Source: Escherichia coli
GTDB taxonomy: Bacteria > Pseudomonadota > Gammaproteobacteria > Enterobacterales > Enterobacteriaceae
DNA: 64,000 nt
Assembly (NCBI RefSeq): GCF_003334385.1
Contig: NZ_QOWN01000017.1
Reading direction: 5' to 3' (one strand)
Shown: positions 1 through 60,882 of the stretch, in pieces
How positions within the stretch are numbered: the stretch's first letter is position 1
How the letters are laid out: each line of letters starts with the position of its first letter
Translations under genes and position numbers: made by a program
The notes under the pieces: generated by a model
What the model saw: only the letters and a program-made list of their open reading frames with translations
The model's database searches: none
Told to the model about the DNA's origin: nothing

Positions 1-477
1 CACGCCCATCACGCTGGAACAGAGAGTCAGCATCAGGCCAAACAGAACCGAGATCCGCGTGCCATAGAGAATGCGTGCCAGCACATCGCCGCCGTTGGCA
101 TCCGTTCCCAGCCAGTTTTGCCGGGAGGGTGGAGAAGGGAAGGGCTTATCGGTAGCAAAGTTGATACTGGTAGCACCAAAGCGAATCGGTGCCCACAGTA
201 CCCAGCCGTTATTTTCCAGCCGTTGTTTCAGCCACGGGTCCTGATAATCAGCCTGACTTGCCAGCGGGCCGCCAAAATCGCTTTCGCTGTAGTTTTTCAA
301 TAACGGGAAATACCAACTGCCGTCATAACGCACCAGCAACGGTTTATCGTTGGCGATAAGTTCAGAACACAAACTCAAACCAAACAAGACGAGGAAAATC
401 CATAACGACCAGTAGCCGCGACGGTTATGACGAAAACGCGCCCAACGGGCCTGATTGACGGGGCTGAGTCGCGACAT
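1..477 (-). CDS. yejE: ABC transporter permease YejE, N-terminal portion only (gene runs off the window start)
   Basis: Minus-strand frame open from 477 to position 1; ATG at 475-477 overlaps the yejB stop (TAATG coupling); translation [34 protein letters not shown]... fits YejE; position after yejB as in the yejABEF operon. Not in ORF track because no stop lies in the window. Confidence 0.75.
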   Translation of the reverse strand, partial: MSRLSPVNQARWARFRHNRRGYWSLWIFLVLFGLSLCSELIANDKPLLVRYDGSWYFPLLKNYSESDFGGPLASQADYQDPWLKQRLENNGWVLWAPIRFGATSINFATDKPFPSPPSRQNWLGTDANGGDVLARILYGTRISVLFGLMLTLCSSVMGV

Positions 478-1571
478 TAACGTCCCTCAAAATCAATACG
501 CGGATCAACCAGCGTATAGCTGATATCACTGACAATATTCAGCAGCAGGCCAATCAGGGTGAAAATATACAAGGTACCAAACATTACAGGATAATCGCGC
601 GAGACGGTCGCTTCGTAGCCCAGTAAGCCCAGACCATTGAGTGAAAACATCACCTCAATCAGCAGCGAGCCGGTAAAAAACATGCTGATAAACGTCGCCG
701 GAAAACCGGCAATCACCAGCAGCATGGCGTTGCGGAACACATGTTTCCAGAGAATATTTTTTTCACTTACCCCTTTCGCACGCGCGGTCACCACGTATTG
801 CTTGCGCACTTCATCAAGGAATGAGTTTTTTGTCAGCATGGTCAGCGCCGCAAAGCCACCAATCACTGTCGCCAGCACCGGCAGTGTGATATGCCACAGA
901 TAATCGGTGATTTTCTGATACCACGGCAGCGAATCAAAGTTAGCGGAAACCAGGCCGCGTAGAGGGAACAGGTCGAAATAGCTGCCGCCCGCGAAGAAGA
1001 CAATCAGCAGGATGGCAAACAAAAAGGCCGGAATGGCGTAGCCGATGATGATAAATGCGCTACTCCAGACGTCAAAGCGGCTCCCATTATAAACAGCTTT
1101 GCGAATGCCTAACGGAATCGACACCAGATAGATAATCAGCGTGCTCCACAATCCGAGGGTGATGGAAACCGGCAGACTGTCTTTAATCAGCGTCAGCACC
1201 GAGGCGCTGCGAAACAGGCTATCGCCAAAATCAAAGCGGATGTAGTCCCAGAGCATTTTGAAGTAACGTTCGTGGATCGGCTTATCAAAACCGTAGCGAT
1301 GAGTGATCTCAGCGATCACTTCTGGATCTAATCCGCGTCCGCCACGGTAATTACTGTCGCTGATATTGCCGACACCCGTTTGCGCATGGCTGGCACGAAC
1401 ACCTTCACCGCCTGCGCCGGGTAATACTCCGGCATTACCAAACTCAATGGCGGCGATGGCCTGGTCGACCGGACCGCCAGGCGCAATTTGCACGATGAAA
1501 AAGTTGATGGTGATAATCGCCCATAATGTTGGGATCACCAGCAACAGACGGCGAATCAGGTAAGCGCCCAT
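477..1571 (-). CDS. yejB: oligopeptide/microcin C ABC transporter permease YejB
   Basis: 364 aa ORF in track; polytopic membrane protein with ABC permease signature; synteny between yejA and yejE. Confidence 0.9.
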
Positions 1572-3386
1572 CTACTCTCCCTGTTTGCTGGCGGACGGCA
1601 GTTTGGCCGCTTTATTGACGTCATACCACCAGGTATCGATACCGAGGCTATAGATGGGGCGCACGGCCGGCTGGGAGAATTTATCCCACCAGGCGAGACG
1701 GTCTTCCGCCATGTACCACATTGGCAGCATGTAATAATTCCACGTTAATACGCGATCCAGTGCTCGCCCCAACGGCAGTAATTTTTCTTTATTTCCCTGC
1801 GCGGCAATAATTTGGTTGATCAGCGAGTCGATAACCGGGCTTTGCACGCCGGGGGCATTATAAGTGGAATTGATATATTCCGATGACCAGGAAATCTGTA
1901 AATCGGAACTGGGTCACGGCATCGCCCGCCATACGCGTGGCATCATGTCATAGTCGCGACTGCGCATGCGGTTAGTGATTTGCGAGTTATCCACCTTGCG
2001 AATGTCCATGTTGATACCTAGCCGTTGCAGGCTGTGCTGGAACGGCAATACCCACTGACTATTGCTGCTTGCGGGAAGCAATAATTCAAAGCTGAGTGGC
2101 TGACCCGTTGTGGCATTAACGCGTTGCTGACCCTTCAGCACCCAGCCCGCTTCGTTGAGAAGTTTGTCGGCTTTTAACAGGTTGTCACGATCGTAGCCAT
2201 CGCCTTTGGATACCGGCGGCTGGTAGATTTGTGTGAAGACTTCTGACGGTAGATCTTTTTTCATTGGTGCCAGAAGCACCAGCTCCGCGGCGTCGGGGTA
2301 ATTTCTGGCCGCGTATTCGGTATTCTGAAAATAACTGTTCGTGCGACTCCAGGCATTGTAAAACAACGCCTTGTTCATCCATTCAAAGTCAAAGGCGAGA
2401 GTGATAGCTTCCCGGACCCGGCGATCGCTGAATACCGGACGTTGGATATTAAACGCCAGCCAACGCGTATCTTGGGCTGATTCGTTCTTTTGCTCATCTT
2501 TGATGATGTATTTTTTATCGAAATTTTTACCGGTATAACGCGTGGCCCAGTTTTTGGCGTCGTTTTCCATACGCAAATCAAAGGCACCTGCTTTAAACGC
2601 TTCAAAGGCGACATTATCATCGAGGTAATAATCGTAGCGAATGGTGTCGAAATTCCAGCGTCCACGGTTTACCGGTAAGTTTGCTGCCCAGTAATCTTTC
2701 ACACGGGAATAGACAATATTTTGCCCCATTTTCCAGGACGTAACGCGGTACGGACCACTGGCAAGCGGAGGCGTGGCGAGCGGGTCGCTAAGTTTGTGAT
2801 CCTTCCAGTACTTTTCTGGAAATACCGGCAGCGAAAACAGACTCAGCATATCTTCTTTGCCGGGTTTAGCTAACTCAATGCGCACGGTTAACGGTGCAAT
2901 GGCTTTGACGGTGGTGCCTTTGTAGACCAGACGAAATTGCGGCACGCCTTCGGTCATAAATTTTTGAAAAGTAAACTCTACATCGCGGGCAGTAATGGGC
3001 GAACCATCATGAAAACGGGCGCGCGGATTAATAGCGACCTCCACCCAGGAATAATCGTCAGCATAGCGTGCGCTTTCAGCAATCAGCGGGTAATAACTGC
3101 CTGGTTCGTCATCGGAAGTCGTAAATAGCGTGTCGTACAGCTGCTCGGTGCGTGCGCCCGGGTTGCCGCGCAGTGCATAGCGGTTGAAATTATCGAAGGT
3201 GCCGAGGGCTGACAACGTTATCTGCCCACCTTTTGGCGCGGCGGGGTTCACATAATCAAAATGGTTGAAATTAAACGCGTACCGGGGTTCGCCCAGCACG
3301 GCAAAGGCATAGCTTTCCTTGATAGCCTGCGCCTGCACACCAAAGGTGAACAGAGCGATAAACAGCAGCAGTATGCGCACAATCAT
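1572..3386 (-). pseudogene. yejA: periplasmic substrate-binding protein YejA interrupted by an in-frame TGA (stop at 1914-1916)
   Basis: Track ORFs 1914..3392 (492 aa) and 1572..1847 (91 aa) are in the same frame, separated only by TGA at 1914-1916; together with start at MIVRILLL (3386) they span 604 codons, the length I recall for intact YejA. Confidence 0.7.
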
Positions 3387-3467
3387 CTGCAACGGATTTC
3401 CTTTTACTCATCATTAGCCGCAATCCGGCATGCTTTCACTATGAATAATAAGGGACGTAAGCACACC

Positions 3468-5024
3468 TTACCACTGCGGCGTATACGGTTTCTTTAGCCA
3501 GCGAACAAAATCGTCCAGCGGTAACGGGCGGCTAATCCAGTAGCCTTGCATGAAATTAACGCCGCGTTCGCTTAGCCATCGCGCCTGTTCCGGCGTTTCG
3601 ACCCCTTCAGCAACCGTCAGCATATTGAGGCGTTTCGCCAGCGTCAGCACCGCGTCAAGTACGGGGGAAGTGATCGTTTCCGTACCGATGGCGTTGATAA
3701 ATCCACGGTCAATTTTCAGATAATCGAGCGTAAAACGCTCAAGATAGATAAGCGCGCTGTGCCCGGTGCCGAAGTCATCAATAGCAATTTCTACGCCGAC
3801 CGAGTGCAGCCAGGCGAAGAGTTGTGTGGCTTCTTGCTCTTTCAACATATCGCGCTCGGTAATTTCCAGCACAATCTGGAAATGGTGTGCGGGCAGGGAA
3901 GTGAGCAGTTTCTGGATATCTGCTTTAAAGCTTTCGCTGTGCAGATGGTCCGGCGCAATGTTAATACCAAATTTGACGCCTACCGGCAGCACTTTTTCTA
4001 ATTCTGCGGCATCGCGGGCAATTAACTCAAACAGGTGCTGAGTCAGCGGCACAATCATCTTTTGCGATTCGGCAAAGTTAATGAAGGCATCCGGGGGAAT
4101 TTCTCCCGCGACAGGATGCCGCCAGCGTAGCAGTACTTCCAGGCCCGTTACTCGCAAAGCTTGTGTATCCACCACCGGTTGATACGCCACGTAAAATTGT
4201 TCGCGCTTGATGGCGGTCATGATTTCTCTGCCGGGGCGCATACGTACGCTCATCAGGTAATAGCAGAGCAGGCCAACGACAGTTCCACTCATGCCGCCCA
4301 GTAAAAATGCGTACCACACATCGTTCCATGTCCAGTCATCTGCATAAAGCCGAACGGTCAGAGGAATGCCCGCAATTTTAGTTTCACGGACTGGCATGTC
4401 GGTTAATTCGTTAACGTTCATCAAACGTGAAGAAAAGGTAGATAGCGCAGTATTGCCAATAATGAGGGCGACGCCATCGTAATCTTCCTGCCGTGAACTA
4501 TAAAAGAGTGAAGGCGTCAGGTTGAGATTCAGAGCGGCAAAGACGCCGCTATTTTTCAGCAAAGGGTTGCGATACCAGATGACGATTGCGGGTTTGTTCG
4601 GCACCATCGGCGTGCCGGGTAAGATCGCCATATCGACGTTTTTATTAATGTCGAGCGCCGGAATCAATTCATTGAGTGGAATGTCCATCTCACCGGTCGC
4701 AGATGAACAGAATGTTTTTTTATCTTTCACCAGCACAAACGTTCGGACATTCATGCTAAACGCTGCGCGGGCGGTCAGTTCGGGGTTAGCTTGCTGGCAG
4801 GTATCTAAGGTCAGCGGCTGGAGCCGGTCAGTAGTGGATTTCAGGTCGGCAAAATAGGTATCGAGATACTTTTGTACGTCGGTAATCAGTGTGTCGTATT
4901 TGACTTCGTGCTTATGCCAGGCCACTAAAAACTGAAGGCAACTCACCAGTATCGCAATCATTACGCCTGCAACAATGCAGGTAAGCAGGAGCTTACGTCC
5001 AAAATTGGGAGCGCGTATGAACAT
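3468..5024 (-). CDS. rtn: membrane-anchored EAL-domain protein Rtn (c-di-GMP phosphodiesterase family)
   Basis: 518 aa ORF; N-terminal TM segment plus C-terminal EAL-like domain; synteny between yejA and mepS. Confidence 0.85.
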   Translation of the reverse strand: MFIRAPNFGRKLLLTCIVAGVMIAILVSCLQFLVAWHKHEVKYDTLITDVQKYLDTYFADLKSTTDRLQPLTLDTCQQANPELTARAAFSMNVRTFVLVKDKKTFCSSATGEMDIPLNELIPALDINKNVDMAILPGTPMVPNKPAIVIWYRNPLLKNSGVFAALNLNLTPSLFYSSRQEDYDGVALIIGNTALSTFSSRLMNVNELTDMPVRETKIAGIPLTVRLYADDWTWNDVWYAFLLGGMSGTVVGLLCYYLMSVRMRPGREIMTAIKREQFYVAYQPVVDTQALRVTGLEVLLRWRHPVAGEIPPDAFINFAESQKMIVPLTQHLFELIARDAAELEKVLPVGVKFGINIAPDHLHSESFKADIQKLLTSLPAHHFQIVLEITERDMLKEQEATQLFAWLHSVGVEIAIDDFGTGHSALIYLERFTLDYLKIDRGFINAIGTETITSPVLDAVLTLAKRLNMLTVAEGVETPEQARWLSERGVNFMQGYWISRPLPLDDFVRWLKKPYTPQW

Positions 5025-5130
5025 GATTCCGTTAATTTCCTGAAATTACGACAACATTTAAAAGATAACAATGACCGGACTATAGCCTGGATCAAGACGC
5101 GGAAACATCATTTTCTCTGATGAATGAAAA

Positions 5131-5158
5131 CAAAAAAGCACTGCCTAAGCAGTGCTTT
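5131..5158 (-). terminator. rho-independent terminator downstream of mepS
   Basis: Inverted repeat aagcactgc/gcagtgctt (5136-5158) with A-run on plus strand (T-run on minus strand) immediately 3' of mepS. Confidence 0.5.
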
Positions 5159-5204
5159 CAGTTAACTCGTCAGGATAGCCAAGGGATTGCATCCAAACGG
5201 TTTA

Positions 5205-5771
5205 TTAGCTGCGGCTGAGAACCCGGCGTGCTTCGTTGTAACGCTTCTTCCAGTACGGTTCATTCATGCTGGAAATAATAACACCACTGCTGGTGGAAGC
5301 ATGGACAAACTGATTGTTGCCGATATAAATACCGACATGGCGTCCCGTTGAACCGGCACGGAACAGAACTAAATCACCCGTACGCAAATTACTGCGGGAA
5401 ACAGATTTACCCATTTCCTGCTGTTCGTAAGTCGAACGCGGAAGTTCTAAGCCAAATTGCTCACGGAATGTACGCTGTACGAAACCAGAACAATCGATAC
5501 CTTTTTTAGTGCTGCCGCCCAGACGATAACGTACGCCTTTCCAGTCAGCATACTGATCCATAATTCGCGATTTTACGTCGACATTACGAACCAGGTTTTC
5601 AAATTCATCCTGAGAAGCTTGCAGTGATGATGTTTCACTACCCACTGCACGTGTCTCAGGATGCATATTCTTTGCGGTGTTATTTGCACTACATGCAGAA
5701 AGCAGAACCGCTACTGCAATCGCGGGAATCCCGCGCAAGATATATCTCAAAATCGGTTGAGATTTGACCAT
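5205..5771 (-). CDS. mepS: peptidoglycan DD-endopeptidase/LD-carboxypeptidase MepS (Spr), NlpC/P60 lipoprotein
   Basis: 188 aa ORF with lipoprotein signal (LLSACS) and NlpC/P60 Cys-His motif region; synteny. Confidence 0.9.
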
Positions 5772-6182
5772 GTTGTTTGTTTTCCCTTGAAGTCCTTAAC
5801 GACAAATATCGTTATAAAAAAATGCCAAGCGACACGAGACTAATTACCTGGGCATGTTGAAACAATTCCTTAAGGCCAAATCTGTGGACTAACGCACAAA
5901 ATTATATGCTGTGAGGATAATCTACCGCCGAGGCAAAACGAGTTCGAGATTACCCGATTGGTGCGGTCTTGGCGAGCGGTTTTACATGATTTTTTATAAG
6001 AAAAAGTGATACAGAAAGTTAATAAGCGGGGTTGGTCAATTAAAGTACAATTGAGTGAAACGCATGCAATCCATTCATTTACTTAGAGAATGATTTTTGC
6101 GTTCGATAGATGAAAGCACGGTGCGCATCATCAGGATTATCCTCACTATAAAAATAACCCTGATGATGTTAATTACTGTGAG

Positions 6183-6896
6183 TTATTTGTTTTGGAAATG
6201 TTTGTTTTTTCCTGGTAGTGATTTGTCAAAAAAGGTGATTAATCGATCACTTAATGGCGTCAGCAACACCCAGGGCAAACCGATCAATATCACGGTCATC
6301 GAACCGACAATGATGTCAGTAAACCAGTGTGCGCCAATCATTACTCTGGGAAATGCAAAAACCACAAAAATAATAAGGGCGATAAGGCCTGCAACTTTGC
6401 CGAAATAACGCCACATGAATGCCGAAAAAATAAGCAGCATCATGCCGTGATCGCCGGGAAAGCTATCTCGTGAGGCATCTTTCGTGGGAACAGAGAGCAG
6501 TTCGCTGACGCGGTTAATATCGGTAAAAGTCAATGTTGGGCTGGCCCGTTTTACAGGAATTAATGCCTGACCCAGCTGGTTTAATACCACTGCAGTTAAT
6601 AGCATGACCAGACCAATAATCACGATACGTCGTCTGCCAGGGGCGTTTTCTTTCAGCCAGAAACTCAGCATCAACATACCCATCGCCAGCAGTGAACAAC
6701 CGTCGAAGGCGCGATTGTTGGTCAATGCAACCAGCCACAAAAAGGCCTTACTTTCGACCAGTTTCTGATTAAAGAAATAAAAAATATCCGCATCAATCGG
6801 CAACCAGAATCCATGATTAACGGGGATATACCAGGAAAGAAACAGCGCGAGGCCGACAATATTCAACAACACTATTTGCGGCAAATTTTTAATCAT
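6183..6896 (-). CDS. lpxT: lipid A 1-diphosphate synthase LpxT (PAP2 family)
   Basis: Track ORF 6183..6932; likely start at MIKNLPQ (6896) giving 237 aa; multi-TM PAP2-like protein; synteny next to yeiR. Confidence 0.8.
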   Translation of the reverse strand: MIKNLPQIVLLNIVGLALFLSWYIPVNHGFWLPIDADIFYFFNQKLVESKAFLWLVALTNNRAFDGCSLLAMGMLMLSFWLKENAPGRRRIVIIGLVMLLTAVVLNQLGQALIPVKRASPTLTFTDINRVSELLSVPTKDASRDSFPGDHGMMLLIFSAFMWRYFGKVAGLIALIIFVVFAFPRVMIGAHWFTDIIVGSMTVILIGLPWVLLTPLSDRLITFFDKSLPGKNKHFQNK

Positions 6897-45371: not shown

Positions 45372-46319
45372 ATGCGTGTGTTACTGGCACCGATGGAGGG
45401 AGTGCTTGACTCTCTGGTGCGTGAATTGCTGACCGAAGTTAACGACTACGATCTGTGCATCACCGAGTTTGTCCGCGTGGTGGATCAACTGCTGCCGGTA
45501 AAAGTCTTTCATCGCATTTGCCCTGAGCTACAAAACGCCAGCCGGACACCATCTGGTACGCTGGTGCGCGTGCAGTTGTTAGGTCAGTTCCCACAATGGC
45601 TGGCAGAGAACGCCGCCCGTGCGGTGGAGTTAGGTTCCTGGGGCGTGGATCTCAATTGCGGCTGCCCGTCGAAAACGGTTAACGGTAGCGGCGGCGGGGC
45701 GACGTTACTCAAAGATCCTGAACTCATCTACCAGGGTGCAAAAGCGATGCGTGAAGCTGTACCGGCGCATTTGCCCGTCAGCGTGAAAGTGCGTCTGGGC
45801 TGGGACAGCGGTGAGAAGAAATTTGAAATCGCCGATGCGGTTCAACAGGCTGGCGCTACGGAGCTGGTGGTGCATGGGCGGACGAAAGAGCAGGGTTACC
45901 GCGCGGAGCATATTGACTGGCAGGCGATTGGCGATATTCGCCAGCGGCTGAATATTCCGGTGATTGCCAACGGTGAAATCTGGGACTGGCAGAGCGCGCA
46001 ACAATGCATGGCGATCAGCGGTTGCGACGCAGTGATGATTGGTCGCGGGGCGCTCAATATTCCCAACCTGAGCCGGGTGGTAAAATATAACGAACCGCGA
46101 ATGCCGTGGCCGGAGGTGGTTGCTTTGCTGCAAAAATATACCCGTCTGGAAAAGCAGGGCGATACCGGGTTATATCACGTTGCGCGGATTAAACAGTGGT
46201 TGAGTTATTTGCGTAAAGAATACGATGAAGCAACGGAATTATTTCAGCATGTTCGGGTGTTGAATAATTCCCCTGATATTGCAAGGGCTATTCAGGCAAT
46301 TGATATCGAGAAACTCTAA
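45372..46319 (+). CDS. dusC: tRNA-dihydrouridine synthase C DusC
   Basis: Track ORF 45306..46319; conserved protein begins [11 protein letters not shown] (45372), 315 aa. Confidence 0.8.
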
Positions 46320-46360
46320 AAAACCATAGTGATGTTTTTTGACAATGTGTTAGCTCTTTA

Positions 46361-46625
46361 TCAATAGGCCGCACGGTTGTTTGGTGGCGTCAAAATTGCC
46401 GAGGCGTTCCCTGAAGGCCGGGGCAGCCCACATGGATGTGGGCTGAGGGCGCGTTTTACAGGGATGTTACCTCGCGCCCGACCCGGTAGCCGTAAGGGAT
46501 AAGTCGAGGGCACCGCGCAGCGGCGATTTTGTTCGCCAGAGCCCGGGGGTGCAGGGGGCGGCGGCGATTGGCCGCCCCCTGCGCGCTCCTTGCGCCAGTG
46601 ATTATATGAAGCAATGCACATGACA
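46361..46625. other. GC-rich, hairpin-dense intergenic element of unknown nature (possible structured RNA or repeat)
   Basis: About 265 bp of markedly higher GC than flanking AT-rich intergenic DNA; contains perfect inverted repeats gcagggggcggc/gccgccccctgc, gcccacat/atgtgggc, gggcgcg/cgcgccc; the 86 aa ORF called here is low-complexity and likely spurious. Confidence 0.35.
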
Positions 46626-46691
46626 GGAGCGCAACAGGATGAGAGACTGAAATATTCTCGTTATTTTCGGACCTGATGACATTAATTAATT

Positions 46692-46775
46692 TTAAAATAT
46701 CATCTTAAATACGCCAGTCACCACCAGTAGCCCAATCAGGAAAATAATCAATACAGCCCAGAGTATAATTTTCAT
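46692..46775 (-). CDS. yohP: small hydrophobic membrane protein YohP (27 aa)
   Basis: Minus-strand ORF MKIILWAVLIIFLIGLLVVTGVFKMIF; not in ORF track because under 60 aa. Confidence 0.6.
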   Translation of the reverse strand: MKIILWAVLIIFLIGLLVVTGVFKMIF

Positions 46776-46998
46776 TGGCGTTCCTTTATTTGTGAGTGCT
46801 GAATAAGTATAGGAAAAAACGAAGCCCTTTGCCGTTATCCATAAACGATTAAGATAAATCGGAAGATATCATTCACTTAGTGTATATTTTTCTGGATATG
46901 TCGTTTTATTGCCACTGATGTATTGCCACGCGAAACTAAAAAATATATCGCAACACACGGTAATCTCCGCGCACCTTTTCTTACCTGATTATTCCCCC

Positions 46999-48435
46999 AT
47001 GAATCGTGATTCCTTTTATCCAGCCATCGCCTGTTTTCCGCTGTTACTGATGCTGGCCGGGTGTGCGCCTATGCATGAAACCCGCCAGGCGTTAAGCCAG
47101 CAAACGCCCGCTGCACAAGTTGACACCGCATTACCCACGGCGCTGAAAAATGGTTGGCCAGACAGCCAATGGTGGCTGGAGTATCACGATAATCAACTCA
47201 CTTCCTTAATTAACAATGCACTACAGAACGCACCGGATATGCAGGTGGCTGAACAGCGCATTCAGCTAGCTGAAGCCCAGGCGAAGGCAGTTGCCACTCA
47301 GGATGGTCCGCAGATCGACTTTTCGGCGGATATGGAGCGGCAAAAAATGTCGGCAGAAGGCTTAATGGGGCCGTTTGCTCTGAACGATCCGGCCGCAGGT
47401 ACGACCGGCCCGTGGTACACCAACGGTACTTTTGGCTTAACGGCGGGCTGGCATCTCGATATCTGGGGAAAGAATCGGGCGGAGGTTACTGCCCGCCTGG
47501 GTACGGTTAAAGCACGGGCGGCGGAACGCGAGCAAACCCGCCAATTGCTGGCTGGCAGCGTAGCCCGCCTGTACTGGGAGTGGCAAACCCAGGCGGCGTT
47601 AAACACGGTCTTGCAGCAAATAGAAAAAGAGCAGAACACCATTATCGCGACCGATCGCCAGCTATATCAGAACGGGATTACTTCTTCAGTTGAAGGTGTG
47701 GAAACCGATATTAATGCCAGCAAAACCCGGCAGCAGCTCAACGATGTCGCGGGGAAAATGAAAATTATTGAGGCACGGTTAAGCGCACTTACAAATAACC
47801 AGACAAAGTCATTGAAGCTTAAACCGGTCGCGTTGCCGAAAGTGGCAAGCCAGCTTCCTGATGAACTGGGGTACTCCTTACTGGCCCGGCGGGCAGATTT
47901 GCAGGCGGCGCACTGGTACGTTGAGTCATCGCTAAGCACCATTGATGCGGCAAAAGCGGCATTTTATCCTGACATCAACCTGATGGCCTTCCTGCAACAG
48001 GATGCGTTGCACTTAAGCGATCTGTTCCGTCATTCCGCGCAGCAAATGGGCGTTACGGCAGGCCTGACGCTACCCATTTTCGATAGTGGTCGTCTTAACG
48101 CCAATCTCGATATCGCAAAAGCCGAAAGCAACTTGTCTATCGCCAGCTACAACAAAGCGGTGGTTGAAGCGGTGAATGACGTGGCGCGGGCAGCCAGTCA
48201 GGTTCAGACACTGGCGGAGAAAAACCAGCATCAGGCGCAAATTGAGCGCGATGCCTTGCGTGTGGTAGGTCTTGCGCAGGCGCGCTTTAACGCGGGCATC
48301 ATTGCTGGTTCCCGCGTCAGCGAAGCCAGAATCCCCGCGCTGCGTGAGCGGGCCAATGGCCTGTTATTGCAAGGGCAGTGGCTGGATGCCTCCATTCAAC
48401 TCACTGGTGCGTTGGGCGGGGGTTACAAACGCTGA
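46999..48435 (+). CDS. mdtQ: outer membrane efflux lipoprotein (OMF/NodT family) MdtQ, apparently intact
   Basis: Track ORF 46909..48435 uninterrupted; lipoprotein signal with lipobox LLMLAGC from MNRDSFYPA (46999), 478 aa; OMF-type coiled-coil/beta-barrel repeats. Confidence 0.75.
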   Translation: MNRDSFYPAIACFPLLLMLAGCAPMHETRQALSQQTPAAQVDTALPTALKNGWPDSQWWLEYHDNQLTSLINNALQNAPDMQVAEQRIQLAEAQAKAVATQDGPQIDFSADMERQKMSAEGLMGPFALNDPAAGTTGPWYTNGTFGLTAGWHLDIWGKNRAEVTARLGTVKARAAEREQTRQLLAGSVARLYWEWQTQAALNTVLQQIEKEQNTIIATDRQLYQNGITSSVEGVETDINASKTRQQLNDVAGKMKIIEARLSALTNNQTKSLKLKPVALPKVASQLPDELGYSLLARRADLQAAHWYVESSLSTIDAAKAAFYPDINLMAFLQQDALHLSDLFRHSAQQMGVTAGLTLPIFDSGRLNANLDIAKAESNLSIASYNKAVVEAVNDVARAASQVQTLAEKNQHQAQIERDALRVVGLAQARFNAGIIAGSRVSEARIPALRERANGLLLQGQWLDASIQLTGALGGGYKR

Positions 48436-48487
48436 TGATATGCGCCTTCTATACTTAACGTTTATTCAGCGTTAAGTGGAGAACTCG

Positions 48488-49249
48488 ATGGCACAGGTTG
48501 CGATTATTACCGCCTCCGATTCGGGGATCGGCAAAGAGTGCGCGTTATTACTGGCGCAGCAGGGGTTTGATATTGGTATTACCTGGCACTCAGATGAAGA
48601 AGGGGCAAAAGATACCGCGCGTGAGGTAGTTAGCCACGGCGTACGTGCGGAGATCGTGCAGCTGGATCTCGGCAATCTACCAGAAGGGGCACTGGCTCTG
48701 GAGAAACTCATTCAACGGCTGGGGCGCATTGATGTGCTGGTGAATAATGCGGGTGCAATGACCAAAGCGCCGTTTCTTGATATGGCTTTTGATGAGTGGC
48801 GCAAGATTTTTACCGTTGATGTCGATGGTGCATTCTTATGCTCGCAAATTGCGGCTCGTCAGATGGTGAAACAAGGGCAGGGCGGTCGCATCATCAACAT
48901 TACGTCGGTACATGAACATACGCCGCTGCCGGATGCCAGCGCCTACACAGCCGCTAAACATGCGCTCGGTGGGTTAACCAAAGCGATGGCGCTGGAGCTG
49001 GTCAGGCATAAGATTTTGGTGAACGCAGTCGCGCCTGGGGCGATCGCCACGCCAATGAATGGCATGGATGACAGCGACGTGAAGCCCGACGCGGAGCCTT
49101 CGATTCCCTTGCGGCGTTTTGGCGCAACGCATGAGATTGCCAGCCTGGTGGTGTGGCTTTGTTCGGAGGGCGCAAATTACACCACCGGGCAGTCGTTGAT
49201 AGTGGATGGCGGCTTTATGTTGGCGAATCCACAGTTCAACCCAGAATAG
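48488..49249 (+). CDS. yohF: short-chain dehydrogenase/reductase YohF
   Basis: Track ORF 48476..49249; SDR Rossmann motif TASDSGIG and catalytic YxxxK (YTAAK). Confidence 0.8.
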   Translation: MAQVAIITASDSGIGKECALLLAQQGFDIGITWHSDEEGAKDTAREVVSHGVRAEIVQLDLGNLPEGALALEKLIQRLGRIDVLVNNAGAMTKAPFLDMAFDEWRKIFTVDVDGAFLCSQIAARQMVKQGQGGRIINITSVHEHTPLPDASAYTAAKHALGGLTKAMALELVRHKILVNAVAPGAIATPMNGMDDSDVKPDAEPSIPLRRFGATHEIASLVVWLCSEGANYTTGQSLIVDGGFMLANPQFNPE

Positions 49250-49299
49250 CGCAGTGAGGTGCGTGGATATTTCATTGGGTAATATTTTGGTCGGCATGA

Positions 49300-49370
49300 A
49301 AAGACGCACAAGCGTCGTATCAGGCATGGTACTCCGGATGTCGGATGCGGCGCGAACGCCTTATCCAGGG
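49300..49370. repeat. REP-like palindromic element
   Basis: ccggatgtcggatgcggcgcgaacgccttatcc. Confidence 0.4.
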
Positions 49371-49378
49371 CAATGGTT

Positions 49379-49957
49379 TTACGCCTGATGATCCGGCTTT
49401 TTCTTCCCGCGTCGTTTCAGCCACCAGCGCACGCCCACCACCAGAACCACGACCAGAATCAACCAGACCCAGTGCTTCAAATGCTGGTCGAGATTGTGCA
49501 ACCACGGCGCAATCACCTGACCACCAGCGTAACCAATAGTGGTAAAAATCAACGCCCAGGCAAATGCGCCGAGAATATTCAGCGGCAGAAAGATTTTCGG
49601 CGGCAGCTGGCTGGCACCAATCAGCGTCGGGCCAATCACCCGAAAGCCATACATAAAGCGCGTACCAATGACAAACAGATACGGATGGCGTTGGATAAGT
49701 TTCTGCGCCCGCTCAATTTTATCCTGATGTTTCGAGAAACGGCGTAACAGCTTGCCGCCAAACCGCCGCCCGCACAGATAGAGCACCTGGTCGCCAATCA
49801 TGCCGCCAAGCGCCACAGAAAGTACCACCAGCGGGAACTTTAATAGCCCCTGATGCGCCGCAACGCCTCCCAGCAAAGTCACGGTTTCACCTTCCGCCAG
49901 GCTACCGATCACCAGCGCGGCATAACCATATTGTGAGATAAGTGTATTGAGATCCAT
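49379..49957 (-). CDS. yohD: DedA-family inner membrane protein YohD
   Basis: Track ORF 49379..49993; start MDLNTLISQYGYAAL (49957), 192 aa. Confidence 0.8.
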   Translation of the reverse strand: MDLNTLISQYGYAALVIGSLAEGETVTLLGGVAAHQGLLKFPLVVLSVALGGMIGDQVLYLCGRRFGGKLLRRFSKHQDKIERAQKLIQRHPYLFVIGTRFMYGFRVIGPTLIGASQLPPKIFLPLNILGAFAWALIFTTIGYAGGQVIAPWLHNLDQHLKHWVWLILVVVLVVGVRWWLKRRGKKKPDHQA

Positions 49958-60845: not shown

Positions 60846-60882
60846 ATTAAGGGTAAACTAATTGATTTTGCAAGTTTTTATT

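Follow-up and report, generated by a model that had tools for sequence, protein, structure and literature searches.

The mdtQ (yohG) gene is intact in the 64,000-nt stretch of Escherichia coli DNA analysed here (hereafter the window), and only K-12 and its derivatives carry the frameshift; the intact gene is the norm of the species and K-12 is the deviant. As a whole, our results are very probably best explained by a wild-type mdtQ under purifying selection, for which K-12 is null and whose product is a predicted outer-membrane factor (OMF) that would serve as an efflux duct for a partner encoded elsewhere.

Both the list of ORFs and the sequence itself show the mdtQ frame running uninterrupted on the plus strand from an ATG at 46999 to a TGA at 48433-48435 (1437 nt, or 478 codons plus the TGA). 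A longer mechanical ORF starts at a TTG at 46909, but we took the ATG at 46999 as the start because PGAP uses it in strain C9 and the NCBIfam model begins there. The CDS called by PGAP in C9, a strain listed as 100.0% identical to the window over 36000-60000, is likewise intact and has identical coordinates (WP_001078139.1). The N-terminus of the product is MNRDSFYPAIACFPLLLMLAGC, with lipobox L-A-G-C. Its beginning, MNRDSFYPAIACFPLLLMLAGCAP, is a lipoprotein signal peptide with LLMLAGC, in which Cys22 (codon TGT, 47062-47064) is followed by Ala. This cysteine is invariant in an alignment of 60 homologues, and under the Lol-sorting rules Ala at position +2 sends a lipoprotein to the outer membrane. 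The first-pass annotation had described an intact ORF of 478 aa with lipobox LAGC at this locus, and it was right about the coordinates, the length and the lipobox. The features considered below, and the evidence for them where it is particular to the feature, are as follows.

46692..46775, minus strand: yohP, which encodes a 27-aa small membrane protein and is conserved as the upstream neighbour (annotation, synteny)
46999..48435, plus strand: mdtQ (yohG) CDS, intact, 478 aa plus stop (sequence, HMM, alignment, annotation)
46999..47064, plus strand: signal peptide (residues 1-21) and lipobox L-A-G-C (read off the sequence)
47146..47150, plus strand: A5 homopolymer, A4 in K-12 (pairwise alignment, population counts)
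47203..47796, plus strand: OEP repeat 1 (residues 69-266), with strands predicted at 105-116 and 139-153, followed by a helical hairpin at 158-265
47482..47493, plus strand: 12-bp IS421 target, duplicated on insertion and unoccupied in the window (comparison of disrupted genomes)
47875..48417, plus strand: OEP repeat 2 (residues 293-473), with strands predicted at 325-336 and 348-357, followed by a helical hairpin at 359-472
48423, plus strand: synonymous difference, T in the window and G in K-12 (codon 475, GGT/GGG; alignment)
48488..49249, plus strand: yohF, which encodes an SDR oxidoreductase and is conserved as the downstream neighbour, 52 nt after mdtQ (annotation, synteny)

In MG1655 (NC_000913.3), mdtQ (b2139) lies between yohF and yohP and is annotated as a pseudogene. 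Pairwise alignment with the window gave 1435 identical positions out of 1437 and exactly two differences, one of which is the synonymous change in codon 475. The other lies in codons 50-51 (AAA AAT, Lys-Asn), where K-12 has AAAA in place of the AAAAA of the window. This one-base deletion shifts the frame and so makes the K-12 gene a pseudogene: its frame is stopped at 69 aa, and the remainder stays open in another frame, without a signal peptide. Because only one other substitution separates the two alleles, their comparison indicates a recent frameshift. The first-pass annotation had given the K-12 gene as interrupted and had proposed an alignment to locate the lesion. This was right, b2139 being a frameshifted pseudogene of 1436 nt and hence neither intact nor equal in length to the 1437-nt window gene, and the alignment traced the lesion to the single A lost from the run at 47146-47150.

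We examined the distribution of the two alleles in 5426 complete E. coli genomes. The 1.8-kb mdtQ region was found in 5424 of them, and a segment of 81 nt with the A-run at its centre was found in 5412 and was identical to that of the window in 3809. The K-12 A4 version had exact matches in 355 of the 5412 genomes with the segment; a 50-nt query over the A4 junction matched A5 carriers too, and the 355 exact matches were read from identity bands. At least 4595 genomes carry A5 with otherwise identical 50-nt flanks. Among A4 carriers, the 40 best matches and five exact matches sampled across their spread were all (45/45) K-12 or lab-derived strains, among them MG1655, W3110, DH5alpha, C600, J53, TG1, RP437 and evolved MG1655 lines. 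PGAP names an intact mdtQ in thousands of genomes. The contrast with K-12 drawn in the first-pass annotation therefore stands, but intactness is no peculiarity of the window strain.

The window chromosome is phylogroup-A-like. Over 36000-60000 strains WP7-S17-ESBL-04 and cM8a are, like C9, listed as 100.0% identical to it, while the scores of E. coli C and some others lie only slightly below these three, and over 1332-60850 its identity with C9 is 99.9%. Strain C9 has an ISVsa5 element (IS4-like) between psuT and yeiL that is absent from the window (at ~19700). Homology to the reference chromosome ends inside the 5' end of mlrA (yehV), beyond which 60851-64000 is the end of a lambdoid prophage with the following features.

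60883-62169, minus strand: prophage integrase (int)
62203-62457, minus strand: excisionase-like ORF (xis)
62941-63885, minus strand: Ea22-like ORF (ea22)

The identity of this prophage end is 97.5% with Escherichia phage PhiR5_1, whose host is E. coli C, and 94-95% with the int-xis ends of Stx-converting phages, VT1-Sakai among them; any stx gene would lie outside the window's view. Since the prophage end begins within mlrA, this gene, which encodes a curli regulator, is disrupted in the window strain.

E. coli has four OMF genes, tolC, cusC, mdtP and mdtQ. By profile searches and synteny, the window gene is MdtQ, a predicted NodT-family OMF lipoprotein with two OEP repeats. The MdtQ equivalog model (NCBIfam NF008524) matched end to end, with residues 1-478 on model positions 1-478, at 1024.4 bits (E = 0) where the cut-off is 650, which identifies the protein as the equivalog. 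The gene order dusC-yohP-mdtQ-yohF is common to the window, MG1655 (around b2139), strain C9 and Salmonella, and so places the gene in the orthologous position. The NodT-family OMF model TIGR01845 was also passed (274 bits over residues 16-475, the cut-off being 210.05), Cys22, with its predicted acylation, supplies the lipobox cysteine of NodT OMF lipoproteins, and two Pfam PF02321 OEP repeats were found at residues 69-266 and 293-473. Three other assignments were rejected. The MdtP family model (NF007390) scored 356.2 bits, below its cut-off of 597, as for a paralogue; TIGR01844, the model of the TolC subfamily of type I secretion OMFs, scored 54.2 bits against 225.15; and MdtQ failed the CusC-type model in the NCBIfam profile search.

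An AlphaFold2 monomer model, built from the 60-sequence alignment, had a mean pLDDT of 85.5 and the form of a canonical OMF protomer, with four beta-strands and a pair of long helical hairpins (helices 158-224/230-265 and 359-431/437-472). In Foldseek searches against the PDB, this model matched VceC first (TM 0.87, normalised to the target) and then OprN and CusC, at a probability of 1.00, and the top 25 matches were all lipoprotein OMFs. Sequence matches in the PDB were likewise headed by VceC (1yc9, E 1e-39), followed by OprM, CmeC, SilC, CusC and OprN. The modelled MdtQ protomer is therefore like those of VceC, OprN, OprM and CusC. If MdtQ behaves as other members of the OMF family do, its precursor would leave the cytoplasm through Sec, receive its lipid on Cys22 and be taken by Lol to the outer membrane (Ala at +2). 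There it would trimerise into a 12-stranded beta-barrel continued by a long periplasmic alpha-helical tunnel, and, docked on the hairpin tips of a periplasmic adaptor (MFP) hexamer, it would form the exit duct of a tripartite efflux pump.

For the class of pump involved, we turned to MdtQ relatives beyond the orthologues, collected by an exhaustive search. Some of the contigs were short; local BLASTP assigned partial neighbours where it could, though not those of one locus, and there were five informative neighbourhoods.

42%-identity relative: YtcA-MFP(AaeA-like)-FUSC-OMF operon
37%-identity relative: YtcA-MFP(AaeA-like)-FUSC-OMF operon
a further 42%-identity relative: FUSC-OMF
39%-identity relatives, two: MFS-OMF-MFP(EmrA-like) operons

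The operons of the FUSC-type relatives are MdtNOP/AaeAB-like, and an RND operon was absent from all five informative neighbourhoods. These non-RND contexts agree with MdtP (ytcA-mdtNOP) as the closest paralogue family and with VceC as the closest structure. By analogy, they suggest that MdtQ may dock with AaeA/EmrA/MdtN-type adaptors, although five neighbourhoods of paralogue-level relatives are no demonstration of a partner class. The partner would be encoded elsewhere in the genome, and an adaptor of this type with a FUSC-type or MFS transporter would be likelier than an RND pump.

A more specific proposal is that in wild strains MdtQ serves E. coli pumps with AaeA/EmrA-type adaptors, most attractively AaeAB, as their exit duct. 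We consider it unlikely in this specific form. AaeAB has reportedly been characterised in K-12, that is, without MdtQ, and so cannot strictly need it. What makes AaeAB an attractive candidate is that its OMF is given as 'AaeAB-?' in a comprehensive review (PMC8277102). If the proposal is true, TolC-independent export in wild strains has been missed systematically, efflux genetics being almost all done in K-12. [quoted passage not shown] A passage of a later review (PMC11762307) cites Sulavik et al. 2001 for an mdtQ (yohG) null that was more susceptible to drugs. If that null was made in a K-12 background, a broken gene was deleted and no effect would be expected, and the phenotype could be due to polarity on yohF or to noise.

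Alternatively, MdtQ might be a back-up exit duct for RND pumps (AcrAB, AcrEF, MdtABC and others) and substitute directly for TolC. Its fold is common to the RND-associated OMFs OprM, OprN, OprJ, CusC and MtrE, and its family, called 'multidrug resistance outer membrane protein', points to such a role by its name. However, all five informative neighbourhoods are FUSC- or MFS-type with AaeA/EmrA-like adaptors and none has an RND gene, the best match by sequence and structure is VceC, part of the MFS-type VceCAB pump, and MdtQ falls far short of the TolC subfamily model (54 bits against 225). We therefore regard a direct substitution for TolC as improbable.

On the chromosome mdtQ stands among yohJK, dusC, yohP, yohF, yohD, yohC, pbpG and dld. 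No MFP, RND, ABC, MFS or FUSC pump gene adjoins it, and no partner gene was found within the 64-kb window. The first-pass annotation had called mdtQ, as an OMF gene without an adjacent pump partner, a candidate alternative outer-membrane channel, which our examination upholds and which is also the published view: the gene is 'encoded independently' and its function 'not elucidated' (PMC11762307). The order dusC-yohP-mdtQ-yohF-yohD-yohC-pbpG-dld is kept in Salmonella, where MdtQ is 82% identical, and downstream of a 60%-identity MdtQ orthologue lies a yohF orthologue (73% identical). Two further observations concern this region. The Salmonella sequences L003/L004 have, at 476-6495 between yohJ and dusC, a gene block that E. 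coli lacks, with products comprising a LysR regulator, an MFS transporter, a cupin dioxygenase, an FAA hydrolase, a GST-like protein and an FAD monooxygenase; judged by these Pfam families, it resembles a gentisate-type aromatic degradation cluster. A G+C-rich repeat region at ~46360-46640, between dusC and yohP, corresponds to the repeat published as TRIP1c, 363 bp upstream of yohG; TRIP1 repeats mediate chromosomal rearrangements, TRIP1a/1c most often (PMC10888264).

The constancy of yohF as a neighbour raises the possibility that MdtQ and YohF are a functional pair, in which YohF modifies a compound that needs MdtQ to cross the outer membrane, and the pairing, not a classical tripartite drug pump, explains why mdtQ is retained. 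The two genes follow each other on the same strand, 52-66 nt apart, in E. coli, Salmonella and the genome with the 60%-identity orthologue, and no terminator-like site lies between them. Yet their spacer holds a TATACT/TATAAT-like motif (48450-48455), conserved in all four sequences compared, which may be a -10 element and suggests that yohF has a promoter of its own. YohF has no signal peptide and so is cytoplasmic, no inner-membrane component joins it to MdtQ, and the adjacency may be the mere inherited synteny of close relatives. We thus give the pairing little credence. The same spacer can form a stable hairpin (48441-48495; -18.1 kcal/mol, z = -3.3), the 3' arm of which includes the yohF Shine-Dalgarno sequence GGAG (48478-48481); we rejected it as a functional element because it is not conserved in Salmonella.

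We estimated selection on mdtQ with the Nei-Gojobori method. The dN/dS ratios of the window allele were 0.07-0.09 against three divergent E. coli alleles and 0.064 against Salmonella, where dS is saturated, and they are indistinguishable from those of the neighbouring genes yohF (0.057) and dusC (0.062). Because its dN/dS equals that of these housekeeping neighbours, mdtQ is kept by purifying selection. The sole other recurrent lesion that we found is an insertion of IS421 (IS4-like) at one precise site, after window position 47493, which occurs in both orientations and in 15 of the 5426 genomes, ten of them from a single strain series (OkiPb). IS4 has strong target specificity, with which a recurrent IS421 site in mdtQ is consistent. 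Sporadic mdtQ truncations occur in some isolates of Salmonella Typhi and Paratyphi A (PMC9241588). Given the K-12 null, the 15 IS421 genomes and these truncations, mdtQ is dispensable in at least some settings.

Such independent inactivations (K-12, the 15 IS421 genomes and Salmonella Typhi/Paratyphi A) might instead be the first steps in the loss of a cryptic, effectively silent gene, in which case intactness would have no functional meaning. In line with silence, reading the sequence upstream of the mdtQ ATG revealed no Shine-Dalgarno motif, a promoter/terminator scan of 46300-49500 gave two promoter-like sites where 3.1 are expected by chance, and the review PMC11762307 reports no strong mdtQ phenotype. 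A gene drifting to loss is hard to reconcile, however, with dN/dS at housekeeping levels both within E. coli and against Salmonella, with the presence of the mdtQ segment in 5412 of 5426 genomes, or with the rarity of lesions outside K-12 (the 15 IS421 genomes, mostly OkiPb). Nor does silence fit the data from related species, in which K. pneumoniae YohG was identified in the outer-membrane proteome (PMC4404324) and the Salmonella gene is inducible, with a 5.3-fold rise of yohG in a strain selected with ciprofloxacin and an induction by hypochlorite (PMC5381912 and PMC9065344). It is therefore very unlikely that mdtQ is a silent gene. Finally, although a 1-nt length change in a homopolymer is a classic type of sequencing error, an error of sequencing or assembly in the window or in the K-12 reference has a negligible chance of explaining the A5/A4 difference, since A4 is common to 355 separately assembled genomes (all of those listed being K-12 derivatives), A5 is carried by at least 4595 others and all platforms read a run as short as A5 reliably.

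[quoted passage not shown] To this we make the small additions of the exact lesion, its restriction to K-12 among 5426 genomes, the dN/dS values, the IS421 site and the relatives in FUSC- and MFS-type operons. For a wild-type gene under selection of which K-12 is a natural null, the consequence is that what is concluded in K-12 on TolC as sole drug duct and on the pairings of pumps with OMFs is not automatically valid for wild and clinical E. coli.

The predicted MdtQ can be compared with four known proteins. TolC of E. coli (1ek9) has the channel-tunnel fold in common with MdtQ (Foldseek probability 1.00, TM 0.67-0.74), and neither protein is encoded beside a pump or adaptor gene. However, the two are 13% identical, TolC ranks below the lipoprotein OMFs among the Foldseek matches and it is not a lipoprotein, whereas MdtQ has a lipobox. 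VceC of Vibrio cholerae (1yc9) is the best solved structure by both sequence and fold and shares the two-repeat protomer, although it is only 25% identical to MdtQ. VceC is encoded with its MFS pump VceAB, whereas MdtQ has no adjoining pump. MdtP, the OMF of E. coli ytcA-mdtNOP, represents the closest paralogue family (356 bits, residues 17-477) and is also a NodT-type lipoprotein OMF, but it is encoded together with its adaptor and transporter while MdtQ stands alone. The direct counterpart is MdtQ of E. coli O157:H7 and other non-K-12 strains (UniProt Q8X659 being the sequence behind the AlphaFold model in PMC11762307), which is encoded by the same gene in the same synteny and has the lipobox and the 478-aa length of the window MdtQ; the O157 allele differs by three non-synonymous and 13 synonymous changes, and the two are in substance the same protein.
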